Below, piece by piece: positions 1,949 through 44,750 of a stretch of DNA of 44,820 bases. A program made the translations under genes and the position numbers. The notes under the pieces were generated by a model. The model did no database searches. It was not told the origin of the DNA and saw only the letters and a program-made list of their open reading frames with translations. The stretch comes from Escherichia phage SM_S22. Every line of letters begins with the position of its first letter. The stretch's first letter is position 1. The DNA lies in the sequence record PP627283.1; one strand, given 5' to 3'.

Positions 1949-3469
1949 ATGACCGTTAACGTTGACAACCAGCACCCACTATATGCGCGCATCGCGCCAG
2001 AGTGGAAGATGATCCGCGATTGTGTGGCAGGGGAGCGCGCAGTGAAGGCGTGCGGCCCCTTGTACCTGCCTCACCCCGCCAGTGGCGACAATACTGACCC
2101 GAAAGCACGGGCGCGGTATAAGGCGTACAAGCAACGCGCTGTATTCCTGAACGCCACCGCCCGCACACTTAACGCGCTGTTAGGCGTTGCCTTTGCTAAA
2201 CCAGTAAGTCTGGACCTTTCCGGGGCGATGGCTGACCTGATTGACGACGTAGACGGCAGTGGTATGCCGCTGCCGCAACTCCTGCGCGGTGCTATGTCGG
2301 AAGTGCTGCAATCAGGCCGTGCGGGCTTTATGGTGGACTACGATCGCCAGGCGCATTTTGATGAACTGGGTAACGTAGTGCCGCAGACAGCCGCCGAGAT
2401 GGCGTCACACCGCCCGCTCATCCGCCTGTATACGGCAGAACAGATCATCAACTGGCGGCAGACCCACGGCGTAGATACGCTAATTGTGCTGAAGGAAACG
2501 GACGAAATCAGCACCGAAGACCCGGACGACTTCGCAAACCACGAAGTAACAATCTGGACCGAGCTTCGCATGATTGACGGCAAGGCACACGCCCGCCGCT
2601 GGTTTTACAACGCGGACACGTCCGAAGTGCAAATGGACTTACCGCGTGGCTTCACCCGCACCGATCTCGTACCGCTGGTGGATGCGGGCGGTAATGCGCT
2701 TACGCAACTGCCATTTTGCTGGTGTGGTGCGGTGGACAACAACGCGACACCGGACGCCGCACCGCTGGCGGATATTGCGTCCATCAACATTAAGCACTAC
2801 AACGCCGAAGCGGACGTCGCCGAGATTGCGCACATCGTGGGCCAACCTACACTCATTGCGACTGGTCTGACCCAATCATGGGCGGACAAGAACCTGAAAG
2901 GAGGCATCGCGCTCGGGGCAACTAAGGGCGTTATCCTGGGCCAGAACATGGACGCCAAACTGCTTCAGGCGGAGGAGCGCAACTTGTCTGTTGCCCTATG
3001 TGAGCGCCGAGAATTGCAAATGGCTAAACTGGGCGCGGCCCTGGTCGAGAAGGGGACCGCACCTAAGACGGCAACTGAAGCGGCCTACGATGCGCAGACT
3101 GATAACAGTATCCTGTCACTGATTGCCGGTAACGTTGAGAAGGCTTTCAACCGTGCGCTGCAGATCGTCAAGCTGTTCACGGGAGACACCGCAGATCAAC
3201 GTGTAACGCTGAATAAGTTCTACACCGAAATCACGGTTGACGCACAGCTTATGACCGCAATGATGGCGGGTGTGCAGACAGGTACGGTCCGTCTGGCGGA
3301 CTTTATCAAGTGGATGATGGCCCAGGGTGTCATCGACGACTCGCAAACCGTCGAGCAGGTGGAAGACGAATTGCGAAATCAGAATCCATTGCCTCAAATG
3401 TCCCCTGATGCGGTAGAATCAACCGAAGAAGACCCGGACAAGGTAGCGGACAATGGCGAAGACAATTAA
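1949..3469 (+). CDS. portal protein
   Basis: 506 aa directly after terminase; RBS AAGGAAA upstream; acidic C-terminal tail. Confidence 0.75.
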   Translation: MTVNVDNQHPLYARIAPEWKMIRDCVAGERAVKACGPLYLPHPASGDNTDPKARARYKAYKQRAVFLNATARTLNALLGVAFAKPVSLDLSGAMADLIDDVDGSGMPLPQLLRGAMSEVLQSGRAGFMVDYDRQAHFDELGNVVPQTAAEMASHRPLIRLYTAEQIINWRQTHGVDTLIVLKETDEISTEDPDDFANHEVTIWTELRMIDGKAHARRWFYNADTSEVQMDLPRGFTRTDLVPLVDAGGNALTQLPFCWCGAVDNNATPDAAPLADIASINIKHYNAEADVAEIAHIVGQPTLIATGLTQSWADKNLKGGIALGATKGVILGQNMDAKLLQAEERNLSVALCERRELQMAKLGAALVEKGTAPKTATEAAYDAQTDNSILSLIAGNVEKAFNRALQIVKLFTGDTADQRVTLNKFYTEITVDAQLMTAMMAGVQTGTVRLADFIKWMMAQGVIDDSQTVEQVEDELRNQNPLPQMSPDAVESTEEDPDKVADNGEDN

Positions 3470-4556
3470 TCAATATTTGGCGGATCGAATGATTCGCCGT
3501 CACATCTTCACCCAGCGCCTGAGCAATGACCAGGCGCGAAGGGTGCTGGCTATGTGGGAGAAGTTCCGGCCCGCTTTGCTGGGCAAGTTGACCGAGTTAC
3601 TTGATGGCAAAAAGTCCATGAGCAACAAGGCACTTACCACACTATTAACGCAACTCGACAAGACCGTCAAAACGGAACTGCGCGCCGAGTTTAAAGTGCT
3701 GGCGGAGAGTCTTCAGGAGTTCGCCGACACGGAGGCTGATTATCTTTCCGACACATTAACGGCAGCGATCCAGCCAGCGGTCGCCGTACCAGCGGTTGAG
3801 GTGGTTGGTGTGGTGACTGGCGCGCAGATTGCAGCGACGGCGATGAAAAACCCGTTCCTGGGTAATACGATGATGCAGTGGCCTGATTCACTTTCCGAGT
3901 GGACCCGGACGCAGATCGGGAATCAGGTGCGCGCCGGATTCATCCAGGGCAAGCCGACGATGGAAATTATTGCGGACGTGAGGCGCGCGCTAGGCGGTCG
4001 TAGTGCGCAAGCGATCTCAAGCGTTGTTAAGTCCGCGGTCAACCACTATGCGGCGACCGCCCGCGAATTAATGGTAAAAGCTAATGACGATATTCTCGAA
4101 GGACGCCAATGGTTGGCTACATTGGACACGCATACTTCTCCCATGTGCCAGCTACGCGATCGCCTGTTTTATCCAGTTGATGTTACTCCCGACACAAAAG
4201 GGAAGCGCGGCGGGAAAATGGTGGCGGGATCACAATATGGCGCTGGTCCGGGCAAGTTGCATTATTGTTGCCGGTCGACGGAGACGTGGAAGGTTAAAGG
4301 CATGGAAGATTGGCCCAGTGGTAAGCGTCCGGCACTGAAGGCTGACGCGGGTCGATTGCTGAGTGAGCAGGTCGACGCGCAGACCGATTTTTTCTCATGG
4401 GTGCAGCGCCAGCCGCGCCATATCCTGGAAGAATTATACGGAGTGCAACGCGCCGACCAGATTATGCGCGGCGTGAAAGTGCCGAAAATGTTCACCGATT
4501 CAGGCGAACTGATGACTATTGCACAGCTTAAAAACCGGGGGTTATGGCGTGATTAA
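3453..4556 (+). CDS. head morphogenesis / minor head protein (Mu F / SPP1 gp7-like, putative)
   Basis: 367 aa immediately after portal, overlapping its stop; assignment by synteny. Confidence 0.5.
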   Translation: MAKTINQYLADRMIRRHIFTQRLSNDQARRVLAMWEKFRPALLGKLTELLDGKKSMSNKALTTLLTQLDKTVKTELRAEFKVLAESLQEFADTEADYLSDTLTAAIQPAVAVPAVEVVGVVTGAQIAATAMKNPFLGNTMMQWPDSLSEWTRTQIGNQVRAGFIQGKPTMEIIADVRRALGGRSAQAISSVVKSAVNHYAATARELMVKANDDILEGRQWLATLDTHTSPMCQLRDRLFYPVDVTPDTKGKRGGKMVAGSQYGAGPGKLHYCCRSTETWKVKGMEDWPSGKRPALKADAGRLLSEQVDAQTDFFSWVQRQPRHILEELYGVQRADQIMRGVKVPKMFTDSGELMTIAQLKNRGLWRD

Positions 4557-4878
4557 ATACGCAGCGATTGGACTGGTTAGCGGTCTGGCGGTAGGATTCT
4601 GGCTAGGTGACTCCTATCGCGCTGGCGTAGTGGCGGAGGCGGCGCAAGAAGCGCAAGCCCAAGCCCAACGGCAGCAAACTAAAGTTGTTGAGCGCTCCGT
4701 GCAGGCCGAACAGGCCCGCGACGTAGAATACCGGACTATCACAAAAGAGGTTGTTAAATATGTTACGCGCCCTAACCGCCCTGATTGTAGTTTTGACGCT
4801 GAGCGCGTGCGGATCAAGCAGCGTGCCGTTGATGCCGCTAACGGAGTCGGCACTGCGACCGCCGTGCAAGTTCGATAA
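4549..4878 (+). CDS. i-spanin (Rz-like), probable GTG start
   Basis: N-terminal TM segment IKYAAIGLVSGLAVGFWLG followed by A/Q/E-rich coiled-coil region; GGGGG RBS before GTG at 4549. Confidence 0.5.
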   Translation: MIKYAAIGLVSGLAVGFWLGDSYRAGVVAEAAQEAQAQAQRQQTKVVERSVQAEQARDVEYRTITKEVVKYVTRPNRPDCSFDAERVRIKQRAVDAANGVGTATAVQVR

Positions 4879-4990
4879 CCCGTCTGCGGACCCCGACGAA
4901 GATTTGATGATTGACGTGAAAAATATGGAATGCGGGGCGAAGCTGAGGGCGCAGGTGTTGGAGTTGCAGCAAATAATTAAGGGGCCGTAA
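4760..4990 (+). CDS. o-spanin lipoprotein (Rz1-like), embedded in +1 frame of i-spanin
   Basis: Signal peptide with lipobox LTLSAC, proline-rich mature part; RBS AAAGAGG; overlapped-gene architecture typical of Rz/Rz1. Confidence 0.55.
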   Translation: MLRALTALIVVLTLSACGSSSVPLMPLTESALRPPCKFDNPSADPDEDLMIDVKNMECGAKLRAQVLELQQIIKGP

Positions 4991-5003
4991 TGGCCCCTTT
5001 TCC
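4981..5003. terminator. hairpin GGGGCC-n-GGCCCC plus T-run between convergent genes
   Basis: Read from sequence; lies between o-spanin stop and the stop of reverse gene 5005-5769. Confidence 0.5.
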
Positions 5004-5004
5004 G

Positions 5005-5769
5005 TTAGCGAGGAATGCCGCAAATCTCGTTGAGTGTTTTCACATCCAGCGCCACCGCCGTGGATTTTGGCTTGTCCGGGTATGGGATGAATTGCTCAAC
5101 TTCAGGCCATGCCTTAATCAGCTTCTTGTCAGTATTGTGCAGGTCCAGCACACCGGTAACGGTGAGTTTGAACGCATCATACTTCGCGCGCAACTCGCGA
5201 CGGGCCTTGTCGTTACGGTCCAGGCGCTTACAGAAATCATGGTCCGCCGGGTAGTCTATACGACCGCGTGGCTTATATATCGGCAGCGATTTCCCGTCGT
5301 CGTCGACTTCGCACACTGACGCTAACAAAATTTCCTCATACCCAGGCACAATATCGCCGAGATCGGGAGACAGTTTATTCATGTATTTATACTCCCAGTA
5401 TCCGCGATGTACTCGGAATCGGTGTCCGTCTCCGCTCAATGACACGGTACGGACGTTTCCGCCTGCGTTGATCTCGAAAGTGGCGTCGTAAACGCTGCCT
5501 ATACCATATGGGTTGTCGGCGACATGTCTATACGTCGCCTTATTGGTGTACACACAGACGCCGTACATCTGCGACGGGTCATCGCCGATCGCTTCAATGC
5601 GCTCACGTAGCTCGGCGAACGTATGAATTCCTTCCGGCATACAGTCCAGCGTAATGGCGTACGCCAGATTTCGAGAGTCCATCATGATTGATTTGGCTTC
5701 GGTCGCGATTTCGTGGTCGCGCAGGATGTTAGCCAGAATCTGGTTTTTAATGTCTTTCGTCAGTCTCAT
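5005..5769 (-). CDS. hypothetical protein, reverse-oriented moron in head module
   Basis: About 254 aa from ATG at 5769 (RBS GAGGA); the longer ORF to 6216 is rejected because it overlaps the scaffold gene; own promoter TTGCAA-17-TATATT. Confidence 0.5.
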   Translation of the reverse strand: MRLTKDIKNQILANILRDHEIATEAKSIMMDSRNLAYAITLDCMPEGIHTFAELRERIEAIGDDPSQMYGVCVYTNKATYRHVADNPYGIGSVYDATFEINAGGNVRTVSLSGDGHRFRVHRGYWEYKYMNKLSPDLGDIVPGYEEILLASVCEVDDDGKSLPIYKPRGRIDYPADHDFCKRLDRNDKARRELRAKYDAFKLTVTGVLDLHNTDKKLIKAWPEVEQFIPYPDKPKSTAVALDVKTLNEICGIPR

Positions 5770-5798
5770 TAGTGTGTCCTCGTTGTTGGTGTGCAACC

Positions 5799-5862
5799 AA
5801 TATATGCAACCAATACGAGGATTGCAAGCGAATTTTGCGATTATTTTTATCGCTGATAATAT
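5799..5862. promoter_or_regulatory. divergent sigma70-like promoter pair
   Basis: Minus: TTGCAA(5822-5827)-17-TATATT(rc of 5799-5804). Plus: TTGCGA(5835-5840)-16-TGaTAATAT(5854-5862). Two TGCAACCAAT motif copies. Confidence 0.5.
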
Positions 5863-5917
5863 TAGAAGCGTGAAGTCGAGCGGGTGGCCTGCTCTGCCAC
5901 AATCCCAGGGGGATAGC

Positions 5918-6622
5918 ATGAAACTTACTAAAGCAGAATATGACGCGTTGCCGGAAGGTATGAAGGCGCTTTTTGTTGCCGATGGCGACGGGTATAAATC
6001 AACGTTCATGACCGCGGAAGAAGTACAAGCGGAAATCAAGGGTCTGAAAGACAACAACGCGAAGCTGGTGAGCGAGAAGAAAGCAGAAGCCGAACGCCGC
6101 GCCGAAGCGGAGCGCCTTGCGAAAGAGAAAGAGGAAGCCGCCGCGCGCAAAAATGGCGACCTCGAAGCGATCGACAAGTCCTGGAAAGATAAGTTTGCGA
6201 AATACGAAGCAGACACATCGGGAAAAATCGAAGCCTACCGCAAGCAGATCCACGATCTAACCATCGGCAGTGCTGCCAAAGACCTGGCGTCGAAACTGTT
6301 CGGTAAGAATGCGGGAATCATGCAACGTCACGTTATGGACCGCCTCACTCTGGAAGACGGCGAAGACGGCAGCTTGAAAGTGCGTGTCTTGCAGGATGGA
6401 AAACCGTCCGCGCTGACTATGGAAGAGCTTGAAAAAGAGTTCCGTAATAACGCCGATTTTGCATCCGTCCTGGCTGGCACGCCAGCAGGTGGCGCGCCTA
6501 GCAAACCGACGCAGGTTGTCGAAGATGTGAAGTCGAAAATCACTATGGGCCACAGCTTCGGTATCACTGACCTTACGAAACAGGCCGGTGAAATCATCGC
6601 TAAGATGGGCGACGACGAGTAA
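5918..6622 (+). CDS. scaffolding protein (putative)
   Basis: 234 aa from ATG 5918 with RBS AGGGGGA; helical, charged, EAERRAEAERLAKEKEEAAAR region; directly upstream of major capsid gene. Confidence 0.55.
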   Translation: MKLTKAEYDALPEGMKALFVADGDGYKSTFMTAEEVQAEIKGLKDNNAKLVSEKKAEAERRAEAERLAKEKEEAAARKNGDLEAIDKSWKDKFAKYEADTSGKIEAYRKQIHDLTIGSAAKDLASKLFGKNAGIMQRHVMDRLTLEDGEDGSLKVRVLQDGKPSALTMEELEKEFRNNADFASVLAGTPAGGAPSKPTQVVEDVKSKITMGHSFGITDLTKQAGEIIAKMGDDE

Positions 6623-6627
6623 GCAGA

Positions 6628-6652
6628 TTGCCCGCGAAAGCGGGCAATTTTG
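6628..6652 (+). terminator. intrinsic terminator
   Basis: TTGCCCGC-GAAA-GCGGGCAA followed by TTTTG. Confidence 0.5.
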
Positions 6653-6719
6653 CGAGCGCGTAAATCTAAGGTAACATTAACGTCACTGGGCGAATGCTCA
6701 CAACTCAAAGGATTTCGAT

Positions 6720-14449: not shown

Positions 14450-15049
14450 ATGGCGCAAGGTACAATCACACTAACTAAGGGAAGTAAGACCATCACAGGC
14501 GTGGGAACCGCGTTCCTGAGCGAGATCGGGAAGGTCCGCGTATTTACCCGCATCGACGGCAACGACTACACCGGAAAAATTGCGGCATTCAACTCTAACA
14601 CCGTCATCACCCTGGCGGATAACTGGGCCGGACCGACAAAAGCCGGTGCAGCTTATGAGCTAATCGAAGCGCACGACCCGCGATCAAACGAATGGCCCTA
14701 TTACTGGCACATGCAATTGCAAGGCGGCGGAGACGTGCAGTTGGCTTTCCGGTCCGAGGAATTGCAGTTTGGTAACGGTTACGGTCAGAACATCGCGGAC
14801 GGCCCGAACGCCGAAACGAAACAGTTCCCCGTGCAATTCATCGGACTGACTACTGACAAGTGGTGCAACCCTAAACTGGTTTACAACTTCCTTCGCGGGC
14901 ACTTCGTCAAACCGTTTGTCGTCACCGCGCCGGATGGCGAAACAGGTTTATTCGTGGTCGAGCGTTCGAGCTTGTCGTACACTGACAACGGGCACTACAC
15001 GGCAACGGTATCCGCCACCCTTAAGACTGCTATTGGATTCGTAAGATGA
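14450..15049 (+). CDS. minor tail protein (gpM-like position)
   Basis: About 199 aa from ATG 14450; first gene after tape measure. Confidence 0.45.
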   Translation: MAQGTITLTKGSKTITGVGTAFLSEIGKVRVFTRIDGNDYTGKIAAFNSNTVITLADNWAGPTKAGAAYELIEAHDPRSNEWPYYWHMQLQGGGDVQLAFRSEELQFGNGYGQNIADGPNAETKQFPVQFIGLTTDKWCNPKLVYNFLRGHFVKPFVVTAPDGETGLFVVERSSLSYTDNGHYTATVSATLKTAIGFVR

Positions 15050-21617: not shown

Positions 21618-21640
21618 AAGCCCCGAAAGGGGCTTATTTG
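21618..21640. terminator. hairpin between convergent genes
   Basis: AAGCCCC-GAAA-GGGGCTT. Confidence 0.45.
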
Positions 21641-21852
21641 CAGGTTGTGCTTTTGAAATGGTCTACAGACACGTACTGGAAGCTAAACGGATATCCCGCC
21701 CTTAGCATTTTATGCCCGGAGAAGTCTGCAACACCATACACAGGGACCGCATAATCCATACCGCCAGTGTGGTATGTCGCGTCGCAGATCTTGCCAGGAA
21801 TAGTGGAGCAACCAGACAAAAGAACCGCACAAATCATAATTAAGGTTTTCAT
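21634..21852 (-). CDS. small lipoprotein (superinfection-exclusion candidate)
   Basis: 72 aa from ATG 21852 (RBS AGGGGA); signal peptide MKTLIMICAVLLSGC with lipobox; promoter TTGCAA-16-TAATAC upstream; divergent from tail fibre gene. Confidence 0.55.
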   Translation of the reverse strand: MKTLIMICAVLLSGCSTIPGKICDATYHTGGMDYAVPVYGVADFSGHKMLRAGYPFSFQYVSVDHFKSTTCK

Positions 21853-41585: not shown

Positions 41586-41661
41586 TATGTGGCGGTAGTC
41601 TGGCGGCCCTGGTGCTGTTGGCGTCGGTTATTAGTCTGGTTAAATACCTATGGGGCCGATT

Positions 41662-41949
41662 ATGATTCATGATGTGATTTATTGGTTTGGTTTGATCTGC
41701 GGGCTGTGCCTACTTACCGCGGTGCTGTTGGGCGTCCTGATGTTCGTAGTATGGCCCGCCGTGGAAGCCGCCAGCATTACCCGCATGACGTTCGAGATAT
41801 ACAAGCGCCGTGGAATCACGGAGCACCCGACCAGGTTGCGCATGTGGTGGCTGTGGTATCGGGATATGATAGGCGGGCGAACATTCGAAGCCGTCCGCTC
41901 ATCCGGGTGGGAGTGGAAAGGCGTCGGCAAGTGGTCCGTTTTCGATTAA
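41662..41949 (+). CDS. membrane protein
   Basis: About 95 aa; N-terminal TM helices. Confidence 0.35.
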   Translation: MIHDVIYWFGLICGLCLLTAVLLGVLMFVVWPAVEAASITRMTFEIYKRRGITEHPTRLRMWWLWYRDMIGGRTFEAVRSSGWEWKGVGKWSVFD

Positions 41950-41966: not shown

Positions 41967-42001
41967 AGTCCCAGTGAGATAAAACTTACTGGGACTTTTT
42001 T
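41967..42001 (+). terminator. intrinsic terminator immediately upstream of lysis cassette
   Basis: 12-bp stem (one G-U) AGTCCCAGTGAG / CTTACTGGGACT, then TTTTTT; holin ATG follows at 42002. Confidence 0.5.
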
Positions 42002-42292
42002 ATGGATAAGCTAAACGAGTGGTTATTCGCCCTTGCGTGTCTTGCTGGTGGCTTCGTAGGCGCACGCATTCATGGCGAGGCAACGAAAGGGCCGTTGAAC
42101 TTCGTTTTATATGTCGTAGTTGGCTTCCTGTGTGCCATATTTGGTGCGCCAGCTATCGCCGAGTGGGCGGGCTTATCGGGCGAGCGCACTGTCGCCGGTT
42201 TGGGCTTCGTAACTGCCATCTTCTGGATGCCAATAGCTGACCGGATCCGGGAGACAATTGCGACGCTACACCTTCCGGGGGGCGCAAAATGA
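42002..42292 (+). CDS. holin (putative)
   Basis: 96 aa with three predicted TM segments; precedes lysozyme. Confidence 0.5.
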   Translation: MDKLNEWLFALACLAGGFVGARIHGEATKGPLNFVLYVVVGFLCAIFGAPAIAEWAGLSGERTVAGLGFVTAIFWMPIADRIRETIATLHLPGGAK

Positions 42293-42534
42293 TTATCTCC
42301 GTCCTGTTGTTTGTTATCATTGGGGCTTCGTCCCTGTTTAACGTGTATGCGCCGTCCGTCAAGGATGGCATTTTAGGCCGGGTGTTATATCTGCTAACGG
42401 CGATGGTCTGCATTATCGGACTGTTGCAAACAGGAGACGTATCTGACACCACCTGGGCCGCGTTAATCTGGCTGTTTGCATTGCGCACGCTGCGTAATGC
42501 TGTTTTAAATGGGGTAAAACATGCGATTCAGTGA
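42289..42534 (+). CDS. membrane protein (second holin or antiholin candidate)
   Basis: 81 aa with hydrophobic segments; coupled to neighbours. Confidence 0.4.
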   Translation: MIISVLLFVIIGASSLFNVYAPSVKDGILGRVLYLLTAMVCIIGLLQTGDVSDTTWAALIWLFALRTLRNAVLNGVKHAIQ

Positions 42535-43012
42535 CAACGGTCTACGATTTACGGCAGCATGGGAGCAATTCAGCCCAGTGCCGTATTTTGCGACTAAGAA
42601 AGAGCAGGCACGCGGCCTGTACACCTGGGGTTATGGGCATACTGGCACGAACCCGCCGCGGAGCATTACCCGTGCGGAAGCACTGGAGCTACTCAAGCGA
42701 GATGTGGCATATGCCGAGAACTGGGTGAACAAGTACGCACACCCGAGCATTAATCAGGCGCAATTCGACGCGCTGGTGGACCTGGTTATCAATGCTGGCC
42801 CGGGTCCGATCATGCCGGACGACGTCGCCGGTGACTTCGACGATGCTGTCCGCCTGGGTGACTGGGCAAAGGTGCGGGCTATACTGCCACAATTCCGCAA
42901 GCAAGGCGGGGAAGTGCTGAAGGGGTTAGTCCGTCGAGCAATCGGCAGGCAGGCGCTATTCGATGGTAAGCAGTGGGACGTTGCCGAGAAAATCGGTCGT
43001 AACGCAGCATAA
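42521..43012 (+). CDS. endolysin, phage lysozyme (GH24-like)
   Basis: 163 aa; WEQF...GLYTWGYGHTG and later QAQFDALVDLVINAG match phage lysozyme pattern. Confidence 0.7.
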   Translation: MRFSDNGLRFTAAWEQFSPVPYFATKKEQARGLYTWGYGHTGTNPPRSITRAEALELLKRDVAYAENWVNKYAHPSINQAQFDALVDLVINAGPGPIMPDDVAGDFDDAVRLGDWAKVRAILPQFRKQGGEVLKGLVRRAIGRQALFDGKQWDVAEKIGRNAA

Positions 43013-43021
43013 GGGGATGAT

Positions 43022-43429
43022 ATGTTAAAAAGTATTCTTGATCATAATGCGGACGCGCTCGACGCGTTGGCTAAAACGGACGACGCGGAAGCGCGTCGTA
43101 TCATTGCGGACACCATCAGCCATGCTGGGGTGTTTGGCGCAAGCCTTCCGGGTCCGAAACCAGAGGTAAAAGTGACAAGCGCCACGGTAACTGTAGCTCC
43201 CGAGGCGGTTACAATCGGCACCCCGGCGAAGGCTACTGCGGCGGTACAACCGGCAGGGGCGACCAATAAATCCGGCGTGTGGATTAGCGGGTCGCCGTCA
43301 ATCGCAACCGTGGATGCCTCCGGCAATATCGAAGGTAAAGCCGCCGGATCTGTCGATATTATTTGGGTGGCTAAGGATGGAAGCGGGGTATCGGGCCGCA
43401 AAACGGTAACTGTGGCAAACGTAGAGTAA
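43022..43429 (+). CDS. Ig-like (Big_2-type) domain protein
   Basis: 135 aa; C-terminal beta-rich segment typical of Ig-like domains. Confidence 0.45.
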   Translation: MLKSILDHNADALDALAKTDDAEARRIIADTISHAGVFGASLPGPKPEVKVTSATVTVAPEAVTIGTPAKATAAVQPAGATNKSGVWISGSPSIATVDASGNIEGKAAGSVDIIWVAKDGSGVSGRKTVTVANVE

Positions 43430-43444
43430 TGAGCAAGCCCGCCG

Positions 43445-43472
43445 TATTGGCGGGCTTTTTATTGTTTGACCT
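43445..43472 (+). terminator. intrinsic terminator
   Basis: AGCCCGCC-GTATT-GGCGGGCT followed by T-run. Confidence 0.55.
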
Positions 43473-43547
43473 GCAACCAATTAATAGCCCATACTGCGGT
43501 CGCCGTGGTATATTGACCGCGGACAATCTGAATCAGGAAGATATACA

Positions 43548-44710: not shown

Positions 44711-44736
44711 AGCCCGCCGATTTGGTGGGCTTTTTT
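44711..44736 (+). terminator. intrinsic terminator
   Basis: AGCCCGCC-GATTT-GGTGGGCT followed by TTTTTT. Confidence 0.55.
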
Positions 44737-44741
44737 GTGCC

Positions 44742-44750
44742 TGTTATAAT
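44742..44750 (+). promoter_or_regulatory. extended -10 promoter element (TGtTATAAT) reading toward window end
   Basis: Would drive the terminase small subunit at position 1 if the molecule is circular or permuted. Confidence 0.4.

Follow-up and report, generated by a model that had tools for sequence, protein, structure and literature searches.

Overlapped spanins of the Jersey family

The closest described relatives of the gene pair considered here are the overlapped 'Jersey' i-spanin and o-spanin families of Kongari et al. 2018 (PMC6139136), to which HK578, JL1, SSL-2009a and EK99P-1 contribute members, together with gp09/gp10 of Salmonella phage Jersey and ORF5/ORF6 of K1ind1. In Jersey and K1ind1, the spanin pair is located between the head-morphogenesis and scaffold genes, and in the Jerseyvirus SeF1, whose spanins fall in the same PHROGs, a comparable split is found, with the spanins as Gp_009/010, the holins as Gp_063/064 and the endolysin as Gp_065 (PMC9409062). 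The GenBank records of Gluttony and GeorgBuechner carry an i-spanin and an o-spanin at the coordinates discussed below; many Dhillonvirus and Jerseyvirus records still call one or both genes 'hypothetical protein'. The literature search retrieved no experiment on any member of the 'Jersey' family and, regarding spanin position or transcriptomes in Dhillonvirus and Jerseyvirus, it returned gene lists only and no transcript maps.

The spanin pair of SM_S22

The window analysed here is the whole 44,820-nucleotide record of Escherichia phage SM_S22 (PP627283.1), which, judged by its sequence, is the complete genome of a Dhillonvirus, a virulent HK578/SO-1-like siphophage of E. coli; the 158 phage records that align to positions 3400-6700 (80-99% nucleotide identity) are nearly all Escherichia phages or members of Dhillonvirus. 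The first-pass annotation had recognized at 4549-4990 an Rz-like transmembrane protein with an Rz1-like lipoprotein embedded in its +1 frame, lying beside head genes and far from a holin and a lysozyme at 42.0-43.0 kb. The features of this locus are the following:

3453-4556, plus strand: head-morphogenesis protein (SPP1 gp7 / Mu F-like), the upstream neighbour; phrog_241, E = 1.3e-115
4537-4556, plus strand: junction of the head-morphogenesis and i-spanin genes, with a Shine-Dalgarno-like GGGGG at 4537-4541, 7 nt before the GTG at 4549
4549-4878, plus strand: predicted i-spanin (Rz-like), 109 aa, GTG start; phrog_2536 'Rz-like spanin', E = 1.4e-35
4745-4750, plus strand: Shine-Dalgarno-like site AAGAGG of the o-spanin, 9 nt before its ATG and within the i-spanin coding sequence
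4760-4878, plus strand: dual-coding overlap of 119 bp, read for the o-spanin in frame +1 relative to the i-spanin
4760-4990, plus strand: predicted o-spanin (Rz1-like outer-membrane lipoprotein), 76 aa, ATG start; phrog_5672 'Rz-like spanin', E = 2.5e-26

The proximity to head genes is confirmed by the phrog_241 neighbour, and the Rz-like transmembrane protein is upheld by both hydropathy and the phrog_2536 match. This small protein has a single N-terminal hydrophobic segment (residues 5-19, AAIGLVSGLAVGFWL; Kyte-Doolittle mean of 1.97 over 15 residues), corresponding to a predicted transmembrane domain of residues ~3-20, and its remaining 87 residues, 30% of them charged, constitute a predicted periplasmic domain with one conserved cysteine, Cys80; these properties agree with the i-spanin class, which is defined by a small size, one N-terminal transmembrane domain and a periplasmic, largely helical C-terminal domain. 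The GTG at 4549 overlaps the head-morphogenesis stop codon (TAA, 4554-4556) by 8 nt, an arrangement in which the translation of the i-spanin would be coupled to that of the head-morphogenesis gene. In GeorgBuechner (MZ501070), 'i-spanin' is annotated from the identical start, and the N-terminus reads V-I-K-Y in all 15 Dhillonvirus sequences; an alternative TTG start at 4519 was dropped, as the GTG has both the Shine-Dalgarno-like site and the GenBank usage. In the zone coding only for Rz, the variable columns among these 15 sequences amount to 13/70, 7/69 and 35/69 at codon positions 1, 2 and 3, respectively. A single-sequence AF2 model of low confidence (pLDDT 57.5) places helices at residues 15-72 and 84-97 with a break in between, a helix-break-helix layout that can be taken as a weak hint.

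The lipoprotein in the +1 frame is also sustained, by its lipobox, by the phrog_5672 match, which is accompanied by a second one to phrog_1267 (E = 2.4e-11), and by the pattern of variation over codon positions; the gene is, however, not embedded but overlapped, since only 119 bp are shared and 112 bp extend past the i-spanin stop (4878 vs 4990). The predicted lipoprotein signal, MLRALTALIVVLTLSAC, contains the lipobox LSAC, with Cys17 and a Gly at +2, and its stretch ALIVVLTLSAC satisfies a PROSITE-like lipoprotein rule, with Arg3 in the n-region and without the Asp at +2 that would signal inner-membrane retention. The predicted mature protein, of 60 aa, contains 7 Pro and two more cysteines (mature Cys20 and Cys42, precursor Cys36 and Cys58), which, as well as Cys80 of the i-spanin, are kept in Jersey, K1ind1, Aeromonas phage pIS4-A and Klebsiella phage Kp4886-1; in distant homologues, the i-spanin motif reads NRPDC, GRTVC, NRNVC or NRIVC, and the o-spanin contexts are PPCK... 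and ...EC. The o-spanin, annotated as such at 4760-4990 in GeorgBuechner and present in 646 phage records (tblastn), has an ATG that arises from the Tyr-Val codons of a conserved i-spanin motif, VVKYV. The protein has no C-terminal hydrophobic segment and hence does not correspond to a unimolecular spanin of the T1 gp11 type.

Two other explanations of these open reading frames have to be considered. Short ORFs are abundant, with 33 of at least 25 aa overlapping positions 3500-6000, and the lipoprotein frame might be one more chance ORF in and after a real gene; this is effectively refuted by the conservation of the frame, which is intact in 15/15 Dhillonvirus sequences with the lipobox SAC (position -3 being Met in L001 and L017 and Leu in the other 13) and both other cysteines, and is intact as well in four distant homologues with the lipobox Cys and the same two cysteines. 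The phrog_5672 match also speaks against chance, as does the lipoprotein rule: of the 562 ORFs in the window that start with ATG and reach 40 aa, only 4 pass it. In the zone coding only for Rz1, the 15 Dhillonvirus sequences have 9, 2 and 21 variable columns at codon positions 1, 2 and 3, and variation in the overlap is lowest at codon position 2 of Rz, that is, position 1 of Rz1; variation sits on the third codon position of each gene itself, and both frames are therefore coding. The other explanation, that both ORFs are membrane proteins of a different role, such as superinfection exclusion or an accessory to head assembly, and that disruption of the outer membrane is otherwise done or unneeded, would agree with their place among the head genes and with the Pfam searches (E <= 0.1), in which the o-spanin had no match, lambda Rz1 included, and the i-spanin no match to lambda Rz, only a sub-threshold one to DUF7904 (E = 0.08), which scores 13.2 bits where the cut-off is 30 bits. 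It nevertheless appears very improbable, since homologues of both proteins occur directly after the holin/endolysin genes in complete cassettes of unrelated phages, since the pair fits the definition of a spanin (a type II transmembrane protein, an outer-membrane lipoprotein overlapped in its +1 frame and conserved periplasmic cysteines), and since the window holds no alternative spanin candidate, the one further credible lipoprotein ORF, at 21634-21852 on the minus strand, having neither a C-terminal transmembrane domain nor an adjoining transmembrane/coiled-coil gene.

By its adjacency, of the overlapped type among the two-component spanins of Summer et al. 2007 and Kongari et al. 2018, and by homology, 4549-4990 is a two-component spanin of overlapped architecture, with predicted topology, complex formation and lytic role; the putative function is read from this architecture and from homologues whose own role is known by annotation only. 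Both proteins belong to the 'Jersey' family and to PHROGs 2536 and 5672 (HMM; tblastn to Jersey and K1ind1), and not to the sequence families of lambda Rz (Pfam Phage_lysis) and Rz1; a sequence search of the PDB with both proteins gave chance-level matches only (E >= 0.04) and no solved relative. The pair and its position on the side of the head genes are already known: they are annotated, and hundreds of relatives share them. Together with the two holins and the endolysin, the spanin makes the lysis set of SM_S22 complete, which has little significance beyond correct annotation.

The SM_S22 pair has in common with the 'Jersey' family the two PHROGs, the +1-frame overlap, the conserved cysteines and the location downstream of a head-morphogenesis gene and apart from the holin-endolysin genes, and the Dhillonvirus members of the family are near-identical to it, the o-spanins at 75-100% and the i-spanins at 73-98%. 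The SM_S22 pair differs from those of Jersey and K1ind1, however, in that the i-spanin is shorter (109 vs 128 aa), the overlap is smaller (119 vs 155 bp), the o-spanin starts 4 codons further downstream, and the pair abuts the head-morphogenesis gene, without a Hoc-like gene in between, and is followed by a convergent minus-strand Nmad5 gene. Lambda Rz/Rz1 likewise combines an inner-membrane type II protein with an outer-membrane lipoprotein in the +1 frame, acting after holin and endolysin (PMC6139136), but has no detectable sequence homology to the SM_S22 pair (Pfam, E <= 0.1); in lambda, Rz1 is fully embedded and both genes directly follow S and R, whereas the SM_S22 genes are overlapped and separated from the endolysin by ~6.4 kb and six genes. 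The T4 proteins pseT.3 and pseT.2 are similar in size (117 and 83 aa, vs 109 and 76 aa in SM_S22), although they represent the 'separated' architecture and another sequence family; in T4, no two of the three lysis functions are linked, whereas in SM_S22 the holins and the endolysin are still together.

Gene order across the circular junction

The holin and lysozyme reported at 42.0-43.0 kb are indeed found there, the holin being represented by two genes:

42002-42292, plus strand: holin-like protein 1, 96 aa; phrog_2359 'holin', E = 6.3e-31
42289-42534, plus strand: holin-like protein 2, 81 aa; phrog_2508 'holin', E = 2.8e-26
42521-43012, plus strand: endolysin of T4-lysozyme type, without an N-terminal hydrophobic segment; phrog_7, E = 1.2e-36; PF00959, E = 4.8e-20 (above the curated cut-off)

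Two nearby ORFs were examined as a possible second spanin and discarded, as neither the transmembrane protein at 41650-41949 (phrog_2531) nor the Ig-domain ORF at 43022-43429 has a lipoprotein partner.

The separation of these genes from the spanins, with six genes in between, stands; the distance of 37 kb does not. The record is a circularly represented genome cut open at the ATG of TerS, and the end and the start of the window are contiguous in L003, L008 and L010, in single BLAST alignments across the junction. In Gluttony, the order holin-holin-endolysin-hypothetical-exonuclease-TerS-TerL-portal-head morphogenesis-Rz-Rz1 runs unbroken over ~7.5 kb. The interval from the endolysin stop to the Rz start across the junction is 6356 nt, not ~37 kb; the genes in this interval are all on the same strand, and the plus strand carries every gene from ~36.7 kb through the junction to 4990. 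The apparent 37-kb separation is therefore mostly an artefact of the linearization of a circular genome at the small terminase gene, and distances measured on linearized records of circularly assembled genomes may mislead. Regarding the mode of packaging, headful has been reported for Opt-212 (PMC9022532), in conflict with the 5' cos reported for EE09 (PMC10673088). The EE09 cos sequence, ATCTTAAGGG, has in the window only a chance-level match with one mismatch, at 15018, which is therefore uninformative on the termini of SM_S22.

Transcription of the spanin genes

The features that may delimit transcription in and around the two gene groups are the following:

43435-43457, plus strand: terminator-like hairpin with a T-run, downstream of the Ig-domain ORF that comes after the endolysin; -18.4 kcal/mol, z = -3.7
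44711-44750, plus strand: terminator-like hairpin at 44711-44731 after the exonuclease gene, -15.2 kcal/mol, and promoter-like motif TGtTATAAT at 44742-44750
4979-4999, no strand assigned: GC-rich hairpin of 8 bp that overlaps the o-spanin stop, between the convergent o-spanin and Nmad5 genes

A further hairpin, at 41967-41996, stops 5 nt short of the ATG of the first holin, and altogether three stable sites of hairpin plus T-run lie around or after the holin-endolysin block, identical or nearly so in the alignable Dhillonviruses. The motif TGtTATAAT, which precedes the TerS ATG by ~70 nt across the junction, and the stem of hairpin 44711-44731 are the same in L003, L008 and L010 except for one stem base, which turns a G-C into a G-U pair in all three; no -35 accompanies the motif (TTGGTG, 3/6 positions), and this region is a candidate start, with a putative promoter, of a transcription unit from TerS to Rz1. 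The hairpin at 4979-4999, called by the scan on the minus strand, folds with -15.4 kcal/mol on the plus and -15.9 kcal/mol on the minus strand (z about -3.5), has one stem pair changed on both arms (A-U to G-C) in L003, L011, L014 and L016, and is a probable bidirectional terminator. These promoter and terminator calls are consensus matches whose counts in both scanned regions are within ~2.5 SD of the shuffled expectation, and their conservation, assessed within one genus at ~90% identity, is weak evidence for function.

A transcription of the spanins separate from that of the holin-endolysin genes, as implied by the first-pass annotation, is plausible on the basis of the conserved hairpins, the promoter-like motif before TerS, the overlap of the Rz GTG with the head-morphogenesis stop and the hairpin after Rz1. 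The alternative is that the spanins have no control of their own and that one long late transcript, from the two holins and the endolysin through TerS to Rz and Rz1 on the circular or concatemeric genome, continues past the hairpins at 43435-43457 and 44711-44731, in parallel with lambda, where transcription from pR' runs through S-R-Rz and across cos into Nu1-A. The location of all genes from ~36.7 kb through the junction to 4990 on the plus strand is in agreement with such a transcript, and so is the hairpin at 41967-41996, which leaves no space for a promoter before the first holin ATG, so that holin expression would already need read-through of a terminator-like structure; the lack of a -35 for TGtTATAAT points in the same direction. 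On the other hand, this transcript would have three stable hairpins with T-runs in its path, and behind the last one there is an extended -10 that includes a perfect TATAAT, both being essentially unchanged in three aligned relatives; overall, a single transcript appears rather unlikely. The spanin pair is probably co-transcribed with, and translationally coupled to, the packaging and head genes, and would form the final cistrons of a block TerS-TerL-portal-head morphogenesis-Rz-Rz1 closed by the hairpin.

Proposed mode of action and origin of the split

In the proposed mechanism, the N-terminal transmembrane domain of the i-spanin would anchor the protein in the inner membrane, with its mostly helical domain of ~87 residues reaching into the periplasm, while the o-spanin, translated from the internal Shine-Dalgarno site and ATG in the +1 frame, would be processed as a lipoprotein and directed to the inner leaflet of the outer membrane. 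Binding between the C-terminal regions of both proteins would create a bridge across the periplasm, and the conserved periplasmic cysteines may permit covalent homodimers. After the holins (42002-42534) have freed the lysozyme (42521-43012) and the peptidoglycan has been destroyed, the spanin complexes would be able to act, disrupting the outer membrane probably via its fusion with the inner one, a mode put forward for lambda Rz-Rz1. The placement of the spanins by the head genes would be tolerable, since lysis is timed by the holin and the spanins need only accumulate by then. The locus also illustrates that spanin genes can be unlinked from holin and endolysin genes, lysis timing being a matter of holin triggering and not of spanin synthesis.

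The split between spanins and holin-endolysin genes is common to Dhillonvirus, Jerseyvirus and Kagunavirus (Guernseyvirinae and Dhillonvirus) and is not unusual for this clade. In the Roufvirus pIS4-A of Aeromonas, by comparison, an endolysin-holin-Rz-Rz1 cassette (Rz matching phrog_2536, E = 6e-36) comes after the head-morphogenesis gene, and in Klebsiella phage Kp4886-1 the cassette holin-endolysin-Rz-Rz1 is just upstream of HNH-TerS-TerL. The i- and o-spanins of both phages are homologous to those of SM_S22 (34% identity, E = 8e-15; 27% identity, E = 3e-8) and have the same +1 register, with the o-spanin ATG inside the K-Y-V codons, but, unlike in SM_S22, they are contiguous with endolysin and holin. 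Since distant homologues stand in complete lysis cassettes of Aeromonas and Klebsiella phages, the split looks like, and most likely arose by, module shuffling of a once-contiguous cassette. The explanation strongly favoured overall is that of an overlapped Dhillonvirus spanin at the end of the packaging and head block, split from the other lysis genes most likely by module shuffling. More tentatively, and with somewhat less than even confidence, the spanins may mark the site of an ancestral full cassette, as in pIS4-A, a different holin-holin-endolysin set having been acquired or retained upstream of the terminase; if so, the spanins would be the coupled last cistrons of a packaging/portal operon, and their dosage would track that of the head genes and not that of the holin.

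Identity and architecture of the spanin genes

Two overlapping reading frames form the spanin pair of Escherichia phage SM_S22:

4549-4878 (+), ORF A, i-spanin (Rz): GTG start, 109 aa, beginning MIKYAAIGLVSGLAVGFWLGDSYRAG
4760-4990 (+), ORF B, o-spanin (Rz1): ATG start, 76 aa, +1 frame relative to ORF A

ORF A, whose GTG follows GGGGG at a distance of 7 nt, has a single N-terminal hydrophobic segment (residues 5-19, Kyte-Doolittle 1.97), and its remaining 87 residues are charged and Ala/Gln-rich, with a sole Cys at position 80. ORF B, whose ATG follows AAGAGG at a distance of 9 nt, opens with a lipoprotein signal (MLRALTALIVVLTLSAC/GSSS; lipobox L-S-A-C, Gly at +2), a rule passed by only 4 of the window's 562 ORFs that start with ATG and are 40 aa or longer, and continues into a mature part of 60 residues with 7 Pro and 2 more Cys. 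PHROG profiles identify both as Rz-like spanins (ORF A, phrog_2536, E=1.4e-35; ORF B, phrog_5672, E=2.5e-26, and phrog_1267, E=2.4e-11). The hydrophobic segment, the lipobox and these matches bear out the first-pass annotation, which placed an Rz-like transmembrane protein and an Rz1-like lipoprotein at 4.5 kb; its description of the lipoprotein gene as embedded has to be revised, since 119 bp are common to the two ORFs and the ORF B stop lies 112 bp past that of ORF A, so the pair is overlapped in spanin nomenclature.

Both ORFs are intact in all 15 aligned Dhillonvirus sequences (the window, 2 GenBank loci and 12 IMG/VR contigs), and the lipobox residues SAC are invariant, with Leu (13) or Met (2) at position -3. 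Variable columns at codon positions 1/2/3 number 13/7/35 in the part exclusive to ORF A and 9/2/21 in the part exclusive to ORF B, in its own frame; in the overlap, variation is lowest where position 2 of ORF A coincides with position 1 of ORF B. This pattern, as expected for two coding frames, indicates that both are translated and excludes ORF B as a chance ORF. A Pfam scan found no homology of either ORF to lambda Rz or Rz1, a PDB sequence search with both proteins found no solved structure of any relative, and a low-confidence AF2 model of the i-spanin suggests a TMD followed by two helices, the first of them long, with a break at TRPNRPDCSFD between them. The spanin identity of the pair is well supported.

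The i-spanin C-terminus (window 4840-4878; related Dhillonvirus sequences L001, L002 and L017) occurs as two alleles, of 109 aa (ending ANGVGTATAVQVR) and 102 aa (ending ANRVGL), consistent with the remark of Kongari et al. (PMC6139136) that the extreme i-spanin C-terminus within the overlap is free to vary.

The pair was already known: GeorgBuechner (MZ501070) carries an 'i-spanin' (4549-4857) and an 'o-spanin' (4760-4990), RefSeq Gluttony labels both genes 'Rz-like spanin', Kongari et al. 2018 (PMC6139136) catalogued the i-spanins and o-spanins of the Dhillonviruses HK578, JL1, SSL-2009a and EK99P-1 in the overlapped 'Jersey' family, and in Dhillonvirus P78 the holins are genes 31 and 32, the endolysin 33 and the Rz-like spanin 40 (PMC12677095), a spacing equal to that of the window. 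The placement is likewise annotated, and conserved across hundreds of phages. Among phage records, 158 match window positions 3400-6700 (80-99% nucleotide identity); almost all are from Escherichia phages of the genus Dhillonvirus, the best being Opt212 (95%).

Distance from the holin and endolysin genes

Profile matches confirm holin and lysozyme genes at 42.0-43.0 kb:

42002-42292, holin (phrog_2359)
42289-42534, holin (phrog_2508)
42521-43012, T4-type lysozyme (phrog_7 and PF00959), lacking a signal-anchor segment

The spanins do lie beside the head genes and apart from this block, but the 37 kb separation is, judging from genome alignments, mostly an artefact, because the window was opened exactly at the TerS ATG (ending 130 nt past the exonuclease stop), its end-to-start junction is bridged by single BLAST alignments in the differently linearised relatives L003, L008 and L010, and the order in Gluttony is contiguous (holin-holin-endolysin-hypothetical-exonuclease-TerS-TerL-portal-head morphogenesis-Rz-Rz1). 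Between the endolysin stop and the Rz start there are in fact 6356 nt (~6.4 kb), occupied by six plus-strand genes (Ig-domain ORF, exonuclease, TerS, TerL, portal and head morphogenesis).

Dhillonvirus assemblies circularise, and reports on packaging conflict: headful by PhageTerm in Opt-212, where TerS was the authors' arbitrary first gene (PMC9022532), versus 10-nt 5' cos ends, ATCTTAAGGG, in EE09 (PMC10673088), a sequence without an exact match in the window. Under either mode the DNA replicates as circles or concatemers. The ORF immediately 3' of the endolysin (43022-43429, +) encodes a protein with a Big_2 Ig-like domain (PF02368, E=2.5e-11). Relatives differ in the C-terminal part of this protein: BLAST alignments are interrupted at ~43156-43503, and the Gluttony counterpart is an ORF of only 53 aa.

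Candidate transcription signals

The candidate signals are as follows:

4979-4999, stable hairpin, ~-15.5 kcal/mol on either strand, spanning the Rz1 stop codon
41967-41996, hairpin and T-run, -21.5 kcal/mol, z=-7.3
43435-43457, hairpin and T-run
44711-44731, hairpin and T-run
44742-44750 (+), extended -10 motif TGtTATAAT, directly after the preceding hairpin and ~70 nt before TerS across the circular junction

The Rz start codon GTG and the stop of the head-morphogenesis gene overlap by 8 nt (GTGATTAA), which, together with the terminal hairpin at 4979-4999, points to TerS-TerL-portal-head morphogenesis-Rz-Rz1 as one unit. Alignment with relatives covered three of the hairpins (4979-4999, 41967-41996 and 44711-44731) and the TGtTATAAT motif. 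One stem pair of the terminal hairpin is altered on both arms in 4 relatives; the 41967-41996 stems are identical in 8 relatives, the loop alone varying, and in 3 relatives the 44711-44731 hairpin differs by one stem base (G-C to G-U) and the TGtTATAAT motif is unchanged, although site counts are not far above shuffled expectation and sequence conservation is high throughout the genus. Separate transcriptional control of the spanins, as the first-pass annotation proposed, is plausible from these consensus-level signals. A real alternative is that the hairpins are read through, as in lambda late transcription, and that the spanins are no separate unit; the hairpin at 41967-41996 ends 5 nt before the first holin ATG, too close for a promoter to fit in between, so read-through is probably needed for the holin genes themselves. 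The same hairpin may be either a terminator requiring read-through for holin expression or an occluder of holin translation initiation. A literature search found no transcript data for these phages.

At 41967-42004 (+), a 12-bp stem is followed by a T6 run ending in the first holin ATG, and the 3' arm holds the only SD-like sequence, GGGA. The TGtTATAAT motif is a candidate promoter of a late or packaging operon, with no good -35 element. The 4979-4999 hairpin lies between Rz1 and a minus-strand gene (5005-5769) for a nucleotide modification associated domain 5 protein (Nmad5; PF18757, E=4.5e-56), which breaks the otherwise plus-strand head module and converges on the o-spanin gene, sharing the hairpin with it; Salmonella phage Jersey and K1ind1 lack Nmad5 at the corresponding position.

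Distribution and possible origin of the split arrangement

By tblastn, 666 phage records contain the i-spanin and 646 the o-spanin, most of them from Salmonella and Escherichia phages. In Jersey (Jerseyvirus) and K1ind1 (Kagunavirus, whose ORF6 is noted as 'putative spanin; overlapping gene') the pair is flanked by the head-morphogenesis gene on one side and the genes for scaffold and major capsid protein on the other, and Jerseyvirus SeF1 (spanins Gp_009/010, holins/endolysin Gp_063-065; PMC9409062) has the same four PHROGs and an identical split. The split has been conserved across a large clade and is not peculiar to this genome.

The pair also has more distant homologues, which belong to complete lysis cassettes. 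Aeromonas phage pIS4-A (Roufvirus) has portal and head-morphogenesis genes, three minus-strand genes and then an endolysin-holin-i-spanin-lipoprotein cassette (phrog_7; phrog_13249; phrog_2536, E=6e-36, its i-spanin and that of the window being 34% identical), and Klebsiella phage Kp4886-1 has, directly upstream of HNH-TerS-TerL, a holin, an endolysin whose N-terminus is hydrophobic, an Rz homologue and, overlapping it, an Rz1 homologue (27% identity to the o-spanin of the window, E=3e-8). In the window and both these phages, the o-spanin ATG is built from the Tyr-Val codons of the conserved i-spanin motif VVKYV in an identical +1 register, so the overlapped architecture goes back to the ancestor of the family. 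The simplest account of the split is module shuffling, in one direction or the other, of a formerly contiguous cassette.

Overlapped o-spanin ORFs are unannotated in pIS4-A (JF974294; L018 6092-6337, lipobox ISGC), where every gene of the cassette is labelled 'hypothetical protein', and in Kp4886-1 (OK490469; L020 5077-5319, lipobox LCSC).

Proposed function

Two translated frames, the TMD, the lipobox, conserved cysteines, family membership and synteny are shown by the sequence data. By analogy with the established lambda Rz-Rz1 model (PMC6139136), the i-spanin would reside in the inner membrane and the lipid-anchored o-spanin in the outer membrane, their C-termini binding to bridge the periplasm; holin triggering and peptidoglycan degradation would then free the complexes, which would disrupt the outer membrane, probably via membrane fusion. 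As the holin sets the timing, any late operon can house the spanin genes; in T4, a well-known case, they lie away from both the holin and the endolysin gene.

A further small ORF (21634-21852, -), whose product has a lipoprotein signal (MKTLIMICAVLLSGC), adjoins the tail-tip and receptor-binding genes. This product has no C-terminal TMD and no Pfam match, and is probably a Cor/Llp-type superinfection-exclusion lipoprotein and not a spanin.
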